NCBI GenBank assembly: GCA_016699105.1
Contig: CP064960.1
Coordinates: 1,138,715 to 1,202,714, forward strand
Direction: 5' to 3'
DNA from: a bacterium
GTDB taxonomy: Bacteria; Patescibacteriota; Saccharimonadia; UBA4664
DNA: 64,000 nt
The position numbers and the translations under genes are program-made. Below, one piece after another: positions 50,322 through 58,878 of this stretch (the stretch's first letter is position 1; the number at the start of each line of letters is the position of its first letter). Below the pieces are notes generated by a model, which did not search any database, was not told the DNA's origin, and saw nothing but the letters and a program-made list of their open reading frames with translations.

Positions 50322-51300
50322 ATGCCAACAACTACTTTTCAGTTGCCCGAGCTTCAATTCGACCACCAGGAACAATGCTATCGAAATGAATCTGGCCAAT
50401 CTACCACTGAATTGGTAGCTCAGATGACAGCGCCGTTGAGCGCCACCTACCAGCTAACCCGCTTTTGCAACCTCAAATGCGTGTATTGCTCGGAACCGCC
50501 AGATGGTGTGAGCACTCCGCTGGGGTTACATCTTGAACGGGTAGATCGACTGGCTGGAATGCGGCGCATCATTGTTGCCGGTGGCGAACCCATGGTTTAC
50601 AAGCATTTCTGGCCCTTCATGGAATATCTGCGAGACAGGTTTGAAGTAGTAGTACTGTCAACAAACGCTGTTTTTATCGGACCCGACGAAGCATCGCGAC
50701 TAAAAGAGTTGGTTGATTATGTAGACGTCACGCTTGATGGGCCCCGCCGTCAACACAATGCAATCCGGGGTGACTACGCCAAGGTTACCCGAGGCATGAT
50801 GTCTGTAGCTATAGCCGGTATTCCGCTGTCTGCAATTTGCGTTTACATGCCAGCTGAGCAGCCTGATTCGCGAAACCTGCTCAAAGCAACTCCGGCCGGG
50901 CAATCGCGATGTCATGCACTATATAGCTCAACAAGGTGATCTGCTCGGTGCCGTTAAGACAAAGATTCTTACACCAATTCCGAAAGGTCGAAGCGAAGAT
51001 CTCTTCGATGGGTTCGTCCCACAGCAAGAGTTGGACGACTTGGCTGATTTTTTGGCTGAGGAAAAGGTCAAAACGGCTGGCAGACTCGAATTATCATTTC
51101 TGACTGGCAACGCATTGGTAAGGGTCATGCTTGGCTGATCGAACCAAACGGACGAGTCGTCGCCTCGCCAGTTTGGGGCATGGATGATTGTATCCATCCC
51201 TTTGGAAACATCGATGAACTCGATGCGGCTGGTCTCTGGAATGCATTTCCGTACAAGCAAAACCACCTCGACAAATATCTCGAGCGAACCCTCATAGTCA
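50322..51300 (+). pseudogene. Radical-SAM/SPASM-type enzyme gene disrupted by at least two frameshifts
   Basis: ORF 50322..50939 has CNLKCVYC and GGEP. Two further frames (50914..51138 and about 51120..51300) carry a C-terminal continuation with a SPASM-like tail (IEPNGRVVASPVWGMDDCIHPFGNIDELD...LWNAF). Confidence 0.5.
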
Positions 51301-55378: not shown

Positions 55379-55538
55379 TCGGCAGGTATATACCCCACGG
55401 GGCGTTGGAATCATACGAAAGTATGGTCCCGGCGCCCCTGCTTTGTTTTCAGTAATTTAGGGGACAGTCAGCAAGGCGACACTGGCCATCATCAGTGCGG
55501 CCGCCATGAGTTTGCGCCGCCACGAGTGCTCATGAAAT

Positions 55539-56297
55539 TTAACACTCCCAAACACAATACTCCACAGCAGAGCAAAGCTGCGTTTGTAGGTCATGATGAG
55601 AGATGCTGGCGCCAGGCTGTAGGCAAAGCTCTCCAAGTGCTACTGCAATACCATTGGCGAGGGCTTGAGTGCCAGTCGTGGGATGGTAGAGTAACCGCCA
55701 GGGTGAACGGCGAGTGTGGGCGGCAGCTACAACATAAGTAATAACGACCAGACTACCTAGAACCACGATTTGCTCAGCCGCCACCGAATTGTAGTGAGTA
55801 ATGTCGTATTTATATAAACTGACTGTGCCAACACCCATAAAACCGCTCAAGGCGGCTAGTCCCGCTCCCCGACTGCCAGTTTTGGTCCGATGAAAAGCGG
55901 CAATGAGAGCGACAAACATGAGGGCGATACCTGCAAATTGCACCATTGAAATGTGATAACCAAGCGCAATATCGACCACTAATATAAAAGGTATGGTAAT
56001 GAGGCGCATGAAACCGATGGTACTGCGGTCGGCTTGAATGGTGGCTTCGGCGATACTATAAATCATGACGACTTCGAGGCCAAGCCTAATAAGCATGGTC
56101 GGCCAGGCTTGGGCTAGATCGAGTTTGAAATCAGCACCAAAGGCTAAGGTGACCGCCACAAAGACCAATCCCCAGAATAATTCCAAAAATGCCAGCTCAT
56201 AGACATTCTCCCGACGCCATAGGGCAAGCTGTTTGCCCAGCGATTGGGAAATCTCTCCCGACAGAGTAGAAGTAAGAACGAGCAGAGCGCTAAACAT
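55539..56297 (-). CDS. Multi-pass membrane protein (EamA/DMT-like transporter?), hypothetical
   Basis: 252 aa with at least 8 TM helices. The C-terminal tail is of dubious quality and may be frameshifted. Confidence 0.4.
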   Translation of the reverse strand: MFSALLVLTSTLSGEISQSLGKQLALWRRENVYELAFLELFWGLVFVAVTLAFGADFKLDLAQAWPTMLIRLGLEVVMIYSIAEATIQADRSTIGFMRLITIPFILVVDIALGYHISMVQFAGIALMFVALIAAFHRTKTGSRGAGLAALSGFMGVGTVSLYKYDITHYNSVAAEQIVVLGSLVVITYVVAAAHTRRSPWRLLYHPTTGTQALANGIAVALGELCLQPGASISHHDLQTQLCSAVEYCVWEC

Positions 56298-56428
56298 ATC
56301 ACTACAATTATGATCGTTGTAGGCATAATTGTTAAGCTTAAGTAATTCTTTAGACGTTTAACGGGCACCACCGGCATCTATTACTGATGCAGGTGGTGCC
56401 CGAATTAACTGTCATCGAGGGCTGATAA

Positions 56429-56689
56429 TTAAGCCCTCAGATCAGCCTGTTCCTTGAGGAAGACCTCGTATTCGCCCCGGTCGAACTGGAGTGCGGGACT
56501 GAGGCGGTTGGACGGATCCCGGAAGAGGAACCAGTCACCGTCTTGAACGAACCAGTCGGCCGGCGGGGTGGCGTCCCAACGAACACGCGGGATGACCACC
56601 ACCGGTGACTTGTCATCGAGCTTGCTGTCGGTGATATGGACTTCGTCACCGATGTTGGTGACGACGACACAGCGAGCATCAGTACACAT
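56429..56689 (-). CDS. DUF397-like small protein A (GC-rich paralog)
   Basis: 86 aa: MCTDARCVVVT...ITDSKLDDKSPVVVIPRVRW...ALQFDRGEYEVFL. This matches the DUF397 core (C-V-E-V..., RDSKDP.GPVL.F, W..F). Confidence 0.6.
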   Translation of the reverse strand: MCTDARCVVVTNIGDEVHITDSKLDDKSPVVVIPRVRWDATPPADWFVQDGDWFLFRDPSNRLSPALQFDRGEYEVFLKEQADLRA

Positions 56690-56753
56690 TTTGACTCCTA
56701 ATACGTGGTTGAAAGATCAGCTAGCACTTCATCGAGACGATTCAGTGGCTCTC

Positions 56754-57668
56754 TCAATCTGGGTCGGGATCAATCCTACTAGTGAAACATCGCCCCCAAC
56801 GAATATTCGAGATGGCTTCGTCATACCCGTTCCAGACATCACCTACACGGCGGTCTTCAAACCCAGCCATCTCCTCGCAAGGATACAGATGGCCTGTAGG
56901 ACCAATGACTGAACCCCCTGCTTGGCACATTGGGCACGGTACACGTGTCCTTGTCGGTACACCAAAGCCTAAAGCTGCCGACAGTCGATATAATTCAATG
57001 ATAGCCTCCTCCGCTGGCAGCGTATTTGGGTCGAGGCCAGATTGCCAACCAACACCCGTGTCATGCACTAATGCGAAGAAAACTGTATGCAGGGACGGGT
57101 TAAGATTCGTGCTTAAATCGTTCAACAAATCGGGGATGCTGGCGTAGTTGTGCGGCGTCACGTGAATCCTGATGTTAGTACGCAACGCTGTTGTTTCGAC
57201 TGCGCTGAGGTTTTTCACGATGGTATCGTATGTGCCTCGATTGCCAGCTAAGTATCTTGTGGCATCATGGTTAGGCTGTGAGCCGTCGAACGTGATAAGG
57301 GCGGACTTTAGACCTGCTTCGACTAGCCTTTCAGCCAATGACGGTACAAGCAGTACACCGTTGGTCGTCAGGCGAGCATTAGACAGCGCGGGCATGCCCC
57401 TGAGTAATCTGAGGCAATGGTCGGGAAATATGAGCGCCTCGCCGCCGAGCATAACCAGGTTTACCACACTACCTTGTCGCCGGTAGTCAACAAATTTAAA
57501 TACCTGATCCATTATGTCATTCGTCATGGGTCGGCTATTGAGCCGTGGACCAATTTGGCTGATGGCTGGCTGGCGCTGGAAGCAATAAGCGCACGAAGCA
57601 TTGCAAATAAAACTTAAAATGACCATCGCACTATAGGCGGTATCTTTAGGCCATTGCGATTCCGGCAT
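56754..57668 (-). CDS. Radical-SAM enzyme with a C-terminal SPASM/twitch-like Cys-rich domain (peptide-maturase type)
   Basis: CNASCAYC (Cx3Cx2C) near the N-terminus, and GGEALIF. The C-terminus is CPMCQAGGSVIGPTGHLYPCEE...IRWGRC. Its start overlaps the upstream DUF397-B stop by 23 nt. Confidence 0.8.
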   Translation of the reverse strand: MPESQWPKDTAYSAMVILSFICNASCAYCFQRQPAISQIGPRLNSRPMTNDIMDQVFKFVDYRRQGSVVNLVMLGGEALIFPDHCLRLLRGMPALSNARLTTNGVLLVPSLAERLVEAGLKSALITFDGSQPNHDATRYLAGNRGTYDTIVKNLSAVETTALRTNIRIHVTPHNYASIPDLLNDLSTNLNPSLHTVFFALVHDTGVGWQSGLDPNTLPAEEAIIELYRLSAALGFGVPTRTRVPCPMCQAGGSVIGPTGHLYPCEEMAGFEDRRVGDVWNGYDEAISNIRWGRCFTSRIDPDPD

Positions 57669-57918
57669 TCTTAGTCACCTCTTCCAGTAATGCACCATAT
57701 TCGCCTTGGTTGAATTGAAGGGCGGGGCTAAGACGGTTTTCGGGATCCCGAAAGAGGTACCAATCGCCGTCAGCCAAGAACCAATAACTAGGGGGCATGG
57801 CTTCCCAGCGTGCTTTATCGATTCTGATTATTGGTGACTGGCCACTAAGCTTACTGTCTGATATTTGAACTTTGTTATCAGAGATGACGATAACAACGCA
57901 TTGACTGTTTGCGCACAT
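57646..57918 (-). CDS. DUF397-like small protein B (AT-richer paralog)
   Basis: 90 aa: MCANSQCVVIVISDNKVQISDSKLSGQSPIIRIDKARW...ALQFNQGEYGALL. About 60% identical to protein A. Confidence 0.6.
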   Translation of the reverse strand: MCANSQCVVIVISDNKVQISDSKLSGQSPIIRIDKARWEAMPPSYWFLADGDWYLFRDPENRLSPALQFNQGEYGALLEEVTKNAGIAMA

Positions 57919-57993
57919 AACTATTAATCCCTTCAGACGGGGTCAATGAGCGAGCGATATTTCGCCTGTATATAAAATATTCTAGAATACAAA

Positions 57994-58012
57994 TATTCCA
58001 AATATTGGAATA
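57994..58012. promoter_or_regulatory. Perfect palindrome TATTCCAA-ATA-TTGGAATA in the divergent promoter; candidate operator
   Basis: An 8-bp inverted repeat with a 3-bp spacer, 20 nt upstream of the XRE gene ATG. It is flanked by AATATT direct repeats and a TCTAGA palindrome. Confidence 0.4.
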
Positions 58013-58031
58013 ATGTATTACGATACACCAC

Positions 58032-58878
58032 ATGGAAGATTCTTCGCCAATATATCAATCAATTGGTCATTATATTCATGATTTGCGACTCCAAAAGGGC
58101 GTAACTGGAATAAGCTTGGTTCGGACAGCCGGGATGAGCCAATCAAAACTCTCCAAAATCGAAACCGAAAGCATCCGCCAGCCGCGAGCCGAGGATATCA
58201 ACCGGTTGCTAGACGCCTTAGATGCAACTGAATACCAGCGTCAGCAAGCCCGATGGCTTATGGGTCAACCTCGAGCCAATTTCATGGAATCTAAGCCGGT
58301 CAGCCATAATTTCCAAGATTGTTTTCCGTTGAGACACAAGCCACCGAGATAAAAATATTTACTTTTATCATACCGGCTCTTCTCCAGACAGCCACCTATC
58401 AAGATCATGTCCTTAACCGTATGATGTTAAGTCCGTCCTTGCGGAGCAAGGCTCGAAGGTTGCTTCAAGAGCGCCAAGACAGACTGTGGGATCCAAACTG
58501 TCGATTTACATTCCTCATGTATGAATCAGCTCTCTATTCAGCCGCTGCCGGCTATAAGGAGCAGATCGTACAAATAGATAGAATTGAACGCATGCTCGGA
58601 GTTCAAACGCTCAGCTGTGGTATTATCCCTTTACGGCTGGCTTGGTTGCTGACGATCCATGTAATTTTGTCATTTATAACGAGAGGGCAGGATTTTACGA
58701 ATATATGGGTAAAGACGTGGCACTAAATGATATCACTGAGATTCACTTTGCGAAGTCAAGGTTTGAAGCATTTGCAAATATGGCTTCATTTGGTGCAGAT
58801 GTGCTTCCATATCTCGAAAGGGCAAAACAGTATTTCAGGGCACGCATAGATAGCCAGACCGCAAGCGCTCTCAAGTAG
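58032..58878 (+). CDS. XRE-family HTH regulator with a DUF5753-like C-terminal domain (Streptomyces Scr/DUF397-partner type), with two apparent frameshifts
   Basis: HTH GISLVRTAGMSQSKLSKIETE in ORF 58032..58352. IIPALLQTATYQDHV (DUF5753 LLQT motif) in ORF 58319..58726. The C-terminal part is in ORF 58642..58878. Confidence 0.6.

Follow-up and report, generated by a model that had tools for sequence, protein, structure and literature searches.

Why should a radical-SAM enzyme be encoded between two small DUF397-like genes, next to an XRE regulator? Proteins of the DUF397/BldB family are abundant in actinomycetes, where they control development and antibiotic production, and their biochemical function is unknown (PMC10294661). 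The locus lies in a stretch of 64,000 nucleotides, here called the window, whose host is a Saccharimonadales-type genome and not an actinobacterium. Our analysis suggests, at a probability of roughly 0.4, that the enzyme cross-links the flexible N-terminal cysteine tail of the small proteins. If true, a cysteine-modifying enzyme dedicated to two DUF397-like proteins would provide a testable handle on their conserved cysteines. In the open-access literature searched we found no link between DUF397 proteins and a radical-SAM maturase, in agreement with the first-pass annotation of this DNA, and the literature searched held no enzymatic post-translational modification of the DUF397/BldB family.

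Three co-oriented genes are found on the minus strand in the order smallB (57646..57918, 90 aa), radical-SAM enzyme (56698..57668) and smallA (56429..56689, 86 aa), and the XRE/DUF5753 gene is divergent on the plus strand (58032..58878). The co-oriented trio and a 23-nt overlap of the smallB stop with the enzyme start had been claimed before; indeed, the two small ORFs flank a radical-SAM ORF that starts at 57668, and the overlap spans 57646-57668. A GAGG ribosome-binding site is located 9 nt 5′ of the enzyme ATG. The enzyme ORF found in the window covers 56754-57668 and encodes 304 aa, cut short by the loss of 1 nt (GG to G) at around 56755. The enzyme has 323 aa in contig L090, which is 97.6% identical to the window; after correction the gene of the window also encodes 323 aa and ends 8 nt before the ATG of smallA, which has its own AGGAG ribosome-binding site. 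The XRE/DUF5753 gene of the window has likewise lost one nucleotide from an A5 run (58325) and one from a G4 run (58629), which spreads it over three frames, and it is intact, with 282 aa, in L090, L003, and L004. The frameshifts in both genes are probably assembly errors, since all of them are 1-nt homopolymer deletions, the adjoining membrane gene (55457-56297) is split as well, and smallB, enzyme, smallA, and XRE (four of four) are intact in L090.

Directly after smallA, a stem-loop on the minus strand (56362..56402) folds at −33.7 kcal/mol as RNA (z = −6.3 versus shuffles). The hairpin lacks a U-tract on its 3′ side and was for this reason absent from the output of a scan for consensus terminators. 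The stem-loop is likely the 3′ end of the one operon that smallB, the enzyme gene, and smallA would form; the hairpin and a promoter-like site separate this operon from the downstream gene for a membrane protein, for which no Pfam match was obtained.

The divergent gene encodes a WhiJ-like regulator. Its pieces in the window match HTH_31 (40 bits) and DUF5753 (44 bits), and the intact orthologue of L090 has both domains above the Pfam cut-offs (HTH_31, 38 bits versus 27; DUF5753, 55 bits versus 23.4). Thus, the families and the orientation given in the first-pass annotation hold, although the gene as read in the window is broken. The XRE/DUF5753 gene adjoins the small genes divergently in the window, L090, L001 to L004, and L093. 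The intergenic region contains a perfect inverted repeat with 8-nt arms, TATTCCAA-ATA-TTGGAATA (57994..58012), a candidate operator of the regulator; the sequence around it has changed little in L001 and L093. Related XRE genes (32 to 40% identity) are paired divergently with genes for 120- to 122-aa Cx4C proteins, with no enzyme, in some cases in the same FAD-oxidase neighborhood. The 120-aa partners (L098 and L100) were considered as homologues of smallA and smallB and discarded, the similarity not being significant.

SmallA and smallB are paralogs (51% identical) that share the conserved core recorded in the first-pass annotation. Their assignment to DUF397 was marginal in Pfam (PF04149; 23.3 bits for smallA and 24.1 bits for smallB versus a cut-off of 24), with only residues ~4 to 41 matched, but a profile of the small-protein family, searched exhaustively against 1.8 billion representatives, retrieved canonical DUF397 proteins with E values of 2e-4 to 9e-4. 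From this we regard them as divergent DUF397 members. The family motifs, a CxE in strand 2 and an RDS closing strand 3 (Kaur et al. 2020), are altered: in CxE the Cys is kept and the Glu replaced by Val (C7-V-V), and in RDS the D-S-K is kept and the Arg replaced by Thr or Ser. Every copy begins exactly with MC, and Cys2 and Cys7 (MC-x4-C) are invariant, which bears out the conserved N-terminal cysteines noted earlier. The AF2 model of smallA (pLDDT 83) leaves residues 1 to 7 unstructured; a leader is absent from the small proteins. Structure prediction gives a beta/alpha repeat with Pur-alpha as the best match, the fold typical of DUF397 being a small one of beta strands with a terminal helix, and the C-terminal half is common to the extended DUF397 proteins P0051, P0052, and P0054. 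Both the Cx4C motif and the strand Cys are general features of a DUF397 subtype whose genes have no such enzyme nearby. An anSME-type motif was sought in the N-terminal tail and rejected, the sulfatase motif C-x-P/A-x-R not being conserved in smallA or smallB. Orthologues of smallA have 94, 77, and 69% identity, the protein itself being annotated as a "hypothetical protein" (QQR52366.1), and the 90% identity cluster of smallB has six members, each of 90 aa.

Compared to the WhiJ/BldB modules of Streptomyces, the same two Pfam families are adjacent and the small proteins again occur as paralogs. The locus differs from those modules in its Saccharimonadales-type host, in small genes that are divergent from the XRE gene instead of downstream of it, in small proteins that lack the N-terminal WxKSS strand and carry the substitutions in CxE and RDS, and in the radical-SAM gene placed between the small genes.

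The enzyme matches Pfam Radical_SAM (PF04055) with 48.5 bits (cut-off 29.5), and the cluster motif C22-x3-C26-x2-C29 (CX3CX2C) is invariant. Only four further cysteines are conserved, all C-terminal (C245, C248, C264, and C294). A SPASM domain has seven cysteines, in the order CX9-15GX4C, gap, CX2CX5CX3C, gap, C, and carries two auxiliary clusters. C248-x10-G-x4-C264 corresponds to the start of this region, and the model predicts a beta-hairpin at residues 253 to 262, but the CX2CX5CX3C block, present in the aligned SCIFF-type maturases, is missing and Pfam gave no match to SPASM (PF13186). The earlier description as a radical-SAM enzyme with a SPASM-like domain therefore stands for the core and not for a full SPASM. 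As judged from its cysteines, the enzyme appears to be a partial-SPASM, twitch-like protein, and the four C-terminal cysteines would suffice to bind one auxiliary cluster. The core strand begins after only 14 residues, the alignments to NCBIfam models begin at model position ~85, and a domain at the position of the PqqD-like recognition element (RRE) of RRE-dependent RiPP maturases is absent.

Closer inspection of the family relations placed the enzyme near, and outside of, the curated maturases. In NCBIfam it reaches at most 100 bits, versus curated cut-offs of 340 to 600, and the nearest models (TIGR04463, geopeptide, CefB, and PapB) are all maturases of Cys peptides. The scores were 69 bits for the ranthipeptide model NF047865 (cut-off 340), 43 bits for SCIFF TIGR03974 (cut-off 425), 42 bits for BlsE, 32.8 bits for the anSME model TIGR03942 (cut-off 349), and 32 bits for TIGR03906 (cut-off 453). 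Since every NCBIfam cut-off was missed, the enzyme is not a well-characterized type such as anSME, a possibility that the first-pass annotation had raised. The best sequence match in the PDB is CteB (E = 2.8e-20), and the best fold matches are anSME (E = 6e-12, TM 0.65) and CteB; BlsE, MoaA, and BtrN are also among the sequence and fold matches. The enzyme thus resembles the CteB/SCIFF and PapB-type maturases in the CX3CX2C motif, in the CX10GX4C start of SPASM, and in having relatives beside Cys-containing precursors, and differs from them in scores far below the cut-offs, in the absent CX2CX5CX3C block, and in the absent domain at the RRE position. Their substrates differ as well, the candidate here being a foldable protein of 86 to 90 aa with N-terminal cysteines and no leader. 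The enzymes anSME and QhpD modify cysteines of proteins instead of leader peptides. Like the enzyme here, anSME has no RRE and opens straight with the radical-SAM core, and its substrate is a protein; QhpD introduces Cys-to-Asp/Glu cross-links within a small subunit of ~80 to 110 aa. Both have a full SPASM domain, whereas that of the enzyme is partial. An anti-phage defense system was considered and rejected, because the PADLOC models gave only generic matches (the pVip core with 34.8 bits and weak HTH matches) and none for the small proteins.

Three diverged lineages, all of one narrow clade, share the arrangement of enzyme and small proteins, which is thus not limited to this contig; the flanking genes of the three are syntenic as well. 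In lineage 3, a full-type small gene upstream of the enzyme overlaps its start by 14 nt. In lineage 2, the upstream gene is a 43-aa ORF that keeps MCANSQCVVV... and has a stop/start overlap with the enzyme; this copy has a TTG start and an internal deletion of ~50 residues and could be a product of decay. In all three lineages a second small gene, equipped with a ribosome-binding site of its own, lies 3′ of the enzyme, 8 to 14 nt after the stop. The locus is under purifying selection (dN/dS of 0.06 to 0.19 between lineages, with dS saturated). Contig L093 has the XRE and small genes with the enzyme almost wholly missing, which suggests that an enzyme-less variant exists. A word-indexed search of 5.8 billion proteins found only three further short-type enzymes, the search with the small proteins also found three further short-type members, and a scan of metagenome contigs found one locus, which was unrelated.

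The only other relatives of the enzyme are ~33 actinobacterial homologues (L011 to L043) with 31 to 36% identity and the same four C-terminal cysteines. These carry ~65 extra N-terminal residues, which gave no PqqD match in Pfam. All actinobacterial relatives surveyed have, as the next gene upstream of the enzyme, one for a short precursor (18 to 77 aa) with an acidic leader and an invariant Cys in a C-terminal core, and an MFS exporter follows about half of the enzymes. The cassettes thus share with our locus the four C-terminal cysteines and a candidate substrate gene immediately upstream, and differ in the N-terminal domain, in the leader-bearing precursors, and in their surroundings, with DUF397 or XRE genes near none of the 33 loci within 6 kb on either side.

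In our model, the operon lies between the divergent promoter/operator region and the strong downstream hairpin and would be controlled by the divergent WhiJ-like XRE/DUF5753 regulator. The enzyme would have branched off, with the N-terminal domain missing, from the mostly actinobacterial family whose members mature short precursor peptides with a Cys core, and its gene would have come to lie inside an older XRE/Cx4C-small-protein module in the Saccharimonadales clade. Its substrates would then most likely be the DUF397-like proteins themselves. The flexible tail, (Met)-Cys2-x4-Cys7, would enter the active site, where a Cys thiolate may engage the single auxiliary Fe-S cluster; the 5′-deoxyadenosyl radical would take a hydrogen from some residue close by. 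The product could be a cross-link of the thioether type, comparable to those made by CteB, PapB, or QhpD. Gene order, overlaps, family relations, and the purifying selection are direct observations; that the genes form an operon, the identity of the substrate, and the chemistry of the cross-link are what we infer from sequence.

Several observations support the small proteins as substrates. Among curated models the closest are Cys-peptide maturases, the best solved relative is CteB, which forms thioethers, and anSME and CteB lead the fold neighbors. The slot upstream of the enzyme, held by a Cys-core precursor in actinobacteria, is filled here by a DUF397-like gene or its 43-aa derivative, and in three lineages a second small copy, with a separate ribosome-binding site, comes after the enzyme. 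The invariant MC start, Cys2 and Cys7, the unstructured residues 1 to 7, the low dN/dS, and the four C-terminal cysteines speak in the same direction, and loss of the ~65-aa N-terminal domain fits a leaderless substrate. However, the Cx4C motif also occurs in this DUF397 subtype without an enzyme, XRE/Cx4C pairs and the L093 variant do without it, the conserved order could be plain inheritance given the syntenic flanks, and the upstream copy of lineage 2 could be decay. Also against substrates of this kind, the Cys core of the actinobacterial precursors is C-terminal after a leader, while the cysteines here are at the extreme N terminus. Resemblance of CVVVT to the cores CGIHI and CVVQT was rejected as support: against only 112 background Cys pentamers it ranked within the top 4.5 to 10% in a position matrix of the actinobacterial cores, and the median true core scored far higher, a result that argues against the substrate reading.

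What else could the enzyme be doing here? A substantial minority of the probability falls to the view that XRE/DUF5753 and the DUF397-like proteins are a regulatory pair of the WhiJ/BldB type, with the intergenic repeat as the binding site of the regulator and with small proteins that modulate the regulator through oligomerization, and that the radical-SAM gene is regulated cargo with its real substrate elsewhere. Indeed, WhiJ9 of Streptomyces binds divergent intergenic repeats and controls the adjacent gene, and BldB does not bind DNA and hetero-oligomerizes with paralogs (PMC10294661); fourteen XRE/DUF397 pairs of S. coelicolor were pleiotropic regulators that did not behave as toxin-antitoxin systems (PMC10364602); and DUF397 genes typically stand in tandem beside an HTH gene (PMC7159879). 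The perfect palindrome and the enzyme-free XRE/small-protein pairs in related genomes are consistent with this. However, the locus has no other precursor-like ORF, the upstream slot is that of the substrate gene elsewhere throughout the enzyme family, and the overlap of the enzyme start with the upstream small gene in three of three lineages, with the second copy 8 to 14 nt on, is tighter than a regulator and its target need. The same missing ~65 residues that fit a leaderless substrate could also mean that the DUF397-like proteins stand in for the lost domain in trans and present another peptide or protein to the enzyme, which we consider unlikely. On visual comparison, the small proteins in their C-terminal half (DWFVQDGDWFLFRDP..LSPA) look similar to the actinobacterial N-terminal domain (GWWFVGNQTWTLIQPD..VSPA), in the register that hhalign also gave, but the hhalign result was not significant (P = 0.04, probability 1%), the Pur-alpha-like fold is not that of a winged-helix RRE, and the locus holds no third-party substrate candidate. 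With that probability of 1%, and since extended DUF397 proteins share this half, it was rejected as a split-off piece of the actinobacterial domain.

Slightly less likely still is a twitch-type enzyme like BtrN or BlsE that acts on a metabolite and stands beside the small genes by accident. The four conserved C-terminal cysteines and the presence of BlsE, MoaA, and BtrN among the matches would suit such an enzyme, but the score for peptide maturases (100 bits) is much higher than that for BlsE, and Cys-core peptides accompany the ~33 relatives, as does an MFS exporter in about half of the cases. Least probable of all, and by our estimate very improbable, is that the locus is a decaying remnant of horizontally acquired DNA with real frameshifts in enzyme and regulator. 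Three frameshifts within 2.5 kb and the truncated upstream copy of lineage 2 might be taken that way; the homopolymer pattern, the split membrane gene, the intact genes of L090, and the dN/dS values are against it.

Here nature provides a maturase without recognition domain next to a leaderless candidate substrate and, if the model is true, a peptide maturase that lost its recognition domain and switched to a protein. It is possible, though less likely than not, that a RiPP-type maturase was repurposed in this way to modify a leaderless, foldable BldB/DUF397 protein at its N-terminal Cys tail. The genes of the cassette, which sits in a reduced Saccharimonadales genome, probably came together from actinobacterial sources. 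Saccharibacteria are epibionts of actinobacterial hosts, and actinobacterial-type regulator families together with a maturase in such a genome would fit gene flow from host to epibiont.

The actinobacterial set, with at least 33 loci, has the look of a RiPP family that is apparently uncurated; a description of this radical-SAM/Cys-core family was not found in the open-access literature searched, and it may be of wider natural-product interest than the Saccharimonadales locus. Its Cys cores are very short and in some precursors repeated three times, as exemplified by the three CGIQIGAEE repeats of the Micromonospora precursor (L017), and another example is MEIDVYEMEDEARDVCGVKG of Frigoribacterium (L041).

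The open reading frames confirm the gene order of the first-pass annotation, in which the radical-SAM enzyme (56754-57668 as read, minus strand) lies between two small DUF397-like genes of the same orientation, smallA (56429-56689, minus strand, 86 aa; QQR52366.1, annotated as hypothetical) and smallB (57646-57918, minus strand, 90 aa). The 23-nt overlap (57646-57668) of the smallB stop with the enzyme ATG was also correctly described; a GAGG ribosome-binding site lies 9 nt upstream of this ATG. The divergent XRE-HTH/DUF5753 gene is indeed present on the plus strand, but as read it is split into three overlapping ORF pieces (58032-58352, 58319-58726, and 58642-58878), which jointly make up one protein. 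All four genes are intact in L090, a 4.9-kb public contig of 97.6% identity (XRE, 282 aa; smallB, 90 aa; enzyme, 323 aa; smallA, 86 aa), and compared to it, the window has 1-nt homopolymer deletions at 58629 (G4 to G3), 58325 (A5 to A4), and 56755 (GG to G) that disrupt the radical-SAM and XRE genes. The membrane-protein gene 3′ of these three genes (55457-56297) is likewise split by a frameshift (approximate position, 55640) relative to its 289-aa orthologue in the related contig L001. Since L090 is intact, the deletions fall in homopolymers, and the membrane gene is split too, the sequences suggest assembly indel errors rather than pseudogenes. After correction, the enzyme gene covers 56698-57668; 8 nt separate its stop codon, which lies under an AGGAG site, from the smallA ATG. 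SmallA is followed by a strong hairpin (56362-56402; −33.7 kcal/mol, z = −6.3), and the divergent intergenic region contains a perfect 8-nt inverted repeat, TATTCCAA-ATA-TTGGAATA (57994-58012), as a candidate operator; most of the intergenic sequence around it is conserved in the other lineages.

Uniqueness to this contig, which the first pass had named as grounds for refutation, does not hold: the arrangement recurs in three diverged lineages, all of one narrow uncultured clade, with syntenic flanks (FAD oxidase, membrane protein, and cutinase genes); scans for additional members found none. In lineage 1 (the window and L090), XRE diverges from smallB, enzyme, and smallA. In lineage 2 (L001-L004 and L010; enzyme 69% identical), it diverges from a 43-aa TTG-start ORF, enzyme, and smallA. 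This ORF (MCANSQCVVVAYKGDSVHV-DTR-EYAGFLEEV..; L001 5901-6032, also in L002-L004 and L010) retains the overlap with the enzyme start. Its two ends, MCANSQCVVV at the N-terminus and EY..LEEV at the C-terminus, are preserved in frame. It looks like smallB minus about 50 internal residues after an in-frame deletion. Its N-terminal stretch matches smallA of its own genome, which suggests gene conversion. In lineage 3 (L091 and L092; enzyme 58-60% identical), an upstream small gene is represented by its 3′ end (..EVFLKEQADHGAD, then the stop), which has a 14-nt overlap with the enzyme ATG, and a second small copy (MCNTCQCVVVTIDGD..) begins 14 nt past the enzyme stop. A comparison of lineages 1 and 2 gives saturated dS; dN/dS values of 0.06 (XRE), 0.10 (enzyme), and 0.135 (smallA) place all three genes under purifying selection.

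The enzyme had been taken for a radical-SAM protein with a SPASM-like Cys-rich domain. Pfam returned a Radical_SAM match but not SPASM. The best NCBIfam matches are Cys-peptide maturases (TIGR04463, geopeptide, CefB, PapB, and SCIFF), all far under the cut-offs and with alignments from about model position 85. Among solved structures, the closest sequence relative is CteB (E = 2.8e-20), which forms thioethers, and anSME and CteB are the top fold matches of the AF2 model (pLDDT 80). In addition to CX3CX2C, the enzyme has four family-conserved cysteines (C245, C248, C264, and C294). They include the first SPASM element, C248-x10-G-x4-C264; alignment with SCIFF-type enzymes shows no counterpart of their CX2CX5CX3C block. 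From its cysteines, the C-terminus is classed here not as a full but as a partial, twitch-like SPASM domain that would hold one auxiliary cluster at most.

Among 5.8 billion proteins, only three short-type enzymes were found (99, 69, and 60% identity), along with four actinobacterial proteins of 394-396 aa (about 35% identity), and a one-genome-per-species scan added about 33 loci (31-36% identity), nearly all from Actinomycetota (including Micromonospora, Microbispora, Streptosporangium, Streptomyces, Catellatospora, and Frigoribacterium). The actinobacterial enzymes have an additional ~65-aa N-terminal domain (consensus PRLLRGE.GWWFLGPGG.ARL); the short enzyme has lost this domain, which occupies the recognition-element position. 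At all surveyed actinobacterial loci, the gene immediately upstream of the enzyme encodes an 18-77-aa peptide (e.g., L016 5491-5724, L017 5488-5718, L013 5556-5690, and L041 5645-5707) with an acidic leader and, at its C-terminus, a short core containing an invariant Cys, such as ..DVCGVKG, ..VVCGINL, ..DCYGIHIENN, ..PWCGVHQEKAN, or ..APCVVQTGVEN; the cores of loci L011-L043 include CGIKG, CGINL, CYGIHIE, and PWCGVHQEK. Threefold repeats of CGIQIGAEE or KCGIYIKAE are also seen, and precursors of Micromonospora and Streptomyces carry their core three times. An MFS exporter adjoins about half of the loci. NCBIfam has no model for these enzymes or their peptides, a search of open-access literature found no paper on them, and the description that fits them best is an uncurated RiPP family with Cys-centred chemistry. 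Whether the pairing recurs with enzyme orthologues generally had also been asked; no DUF397-like or XRE/DUF5753 gene lies within 6 kb at the about 33 actinobacterial loci. At some actinobacterial loci (L006 1-4450 and L005 1-2886), the precursor/enzyme pair adjoins conflict-system-type genes (S8 peptidase, sigma factor, TPR-CHAT, and NB-ARC).

SmallA and smallB are 51% identical. Five small-protein sequences all have Cys2, Cys7, V8, V9, DSKL, SP, W38, and the WF..DGDW.LFRDP..RL.PALQF..GE block. Their DUF397-like nature was only borderline in Pfam (23.3 and 24.1 bits; cut-off, 24). Searched exhaustively with an HMMER profile, 1.84 billion representatives yielded only the own clade, canonical DUF397 proteins (E = 2e-4 to 9e-4), and two repetitive proteins, taken as spurious. 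The DUF397 matches include extended forms of 119-126 aa that share the second 'L.F..E..F' module with the small proteins, and several have the same C-x4-C spacing (C-ESAN-C, C-ANGS-C, and C-GNGA-C); on these grounds, smallA and smallB are regarded as divergent DUF397 members. They are without the first WxKSS strand, and therefore, Cys2 is at the extreme N-terminus. Instead of the published DUF397 motifs CxE and RDS (PMC7159879), they have CVV and (T/S)DS.

XRE relatives also occur without the enzyme. Four (L098-L101; 39-40% identity) share the FAD-oxidase neighbourhood and have as divergent partner a 120-aa protein that begins with MKKCSMGNCPGIVV, and a fifth (L102; 32%) has a divergent 122-aa partner with the DUF397 marks FCGSGGCAYVEL .. 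VRVSSN .. FSPMEWEAA; none of these five loci has a radical-SAM gene. The partners (L098 3419-3781, L100 3431-3793, and L102 2499-2867) begin with or contain C-x4-C, and homology of the 120-aa partners (L098 and L100) to smallA or smallB is not statistically significant. In the lineage-3 contig L093, XRE and an 86-aa small gene are followed by 47 nt and then just the final 30 nt of the enzyme gene. Every overlap of L093 1304-1380 with L091 (1-30 and 969-998) is exactly 30 nt, pointing to contig ends at branch points of an assembly graph with an inferred k of 31; L093 may be an enzyme-less allele coexisting with an enzyme-bearing one, or the junction may be a graph artefact caused by the paralogous repeats. 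Taken together, these loci make the pair of XRE and Cx4C small protein look older, and the enzyme a later addition.

How might the enzyme and the small proteins be connected? Members of the enzyme family would act on a Cys-containing product of the gene immediately upstream. In the Saccharimonadales clade, the gene in this position encodes a DUF397-like protein or an N-terminal fragment of one, and the translational coupling is retained; the small proteins have no leader, the enzyme is without the recognition-position domain, and the invariant flexible MC-x4-C tail is the obvious candidate modification site. On this circumstantial evidence we favor, at a probability of roughly 40%, that the enzyme cross-links the small proteins, most likely by a thioether. 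The strongest rival, itself somewhat unlikely, is that XRE and DUF397 form a regulatory pair like WhiJ/BldB (PMC10294661, PMC10364602), as the enzyme-less loci might suggest, and that the enzyme, as regulated cargo, acts on another substrate. Both readings can be compatible if modification tunes the regulatory activity of the small proteins.

Further alternatives are minor. The DUF397-like proteins might serve as a trans-acting recognition partner of the enzyme, the twitch-like C-terminus might belong to a small-molecule enzyme, or the locus, with its shortened lineage-2 ORF but purifying selection on three genes, might be a decaying remnant. As the first-pass annotation had stated, a link of DUF397 to a radical-SAM maturase seems undescribed: a full-text search of open-access literature found no such paper. 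The component families are known, and the novelty lies in how they are combined and in a configuration with neither recognition-position domain nor leader. Cross-linking of the small proteins would bear on an unsolved protein family, DUF397.

The first pass had implied an actinobacterium, but the host is not one: the only genome record with a matching locus (L010) is labelled Candidatus Saccharimonadales. Proteins of the window match those of a 1,322,297-bp NCBI MAG contig exactly. DUF397 is described as restricted to actinobacteria (PMC7159879), and the presence of DUF397, XRE/DUF5753, and an actinobacterial-type maturase in a Saccharimonadales-type genome may point to acquisition from actinobacterial hosts. 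The remaining window is ordinary chromosome (UvrB, AtpA, and G6PD) with a GC content of about 50%; an unrelated 205-aa ORF (50322-50939, plus strand) gives a weak radical-SAM family profile match (27 bits).
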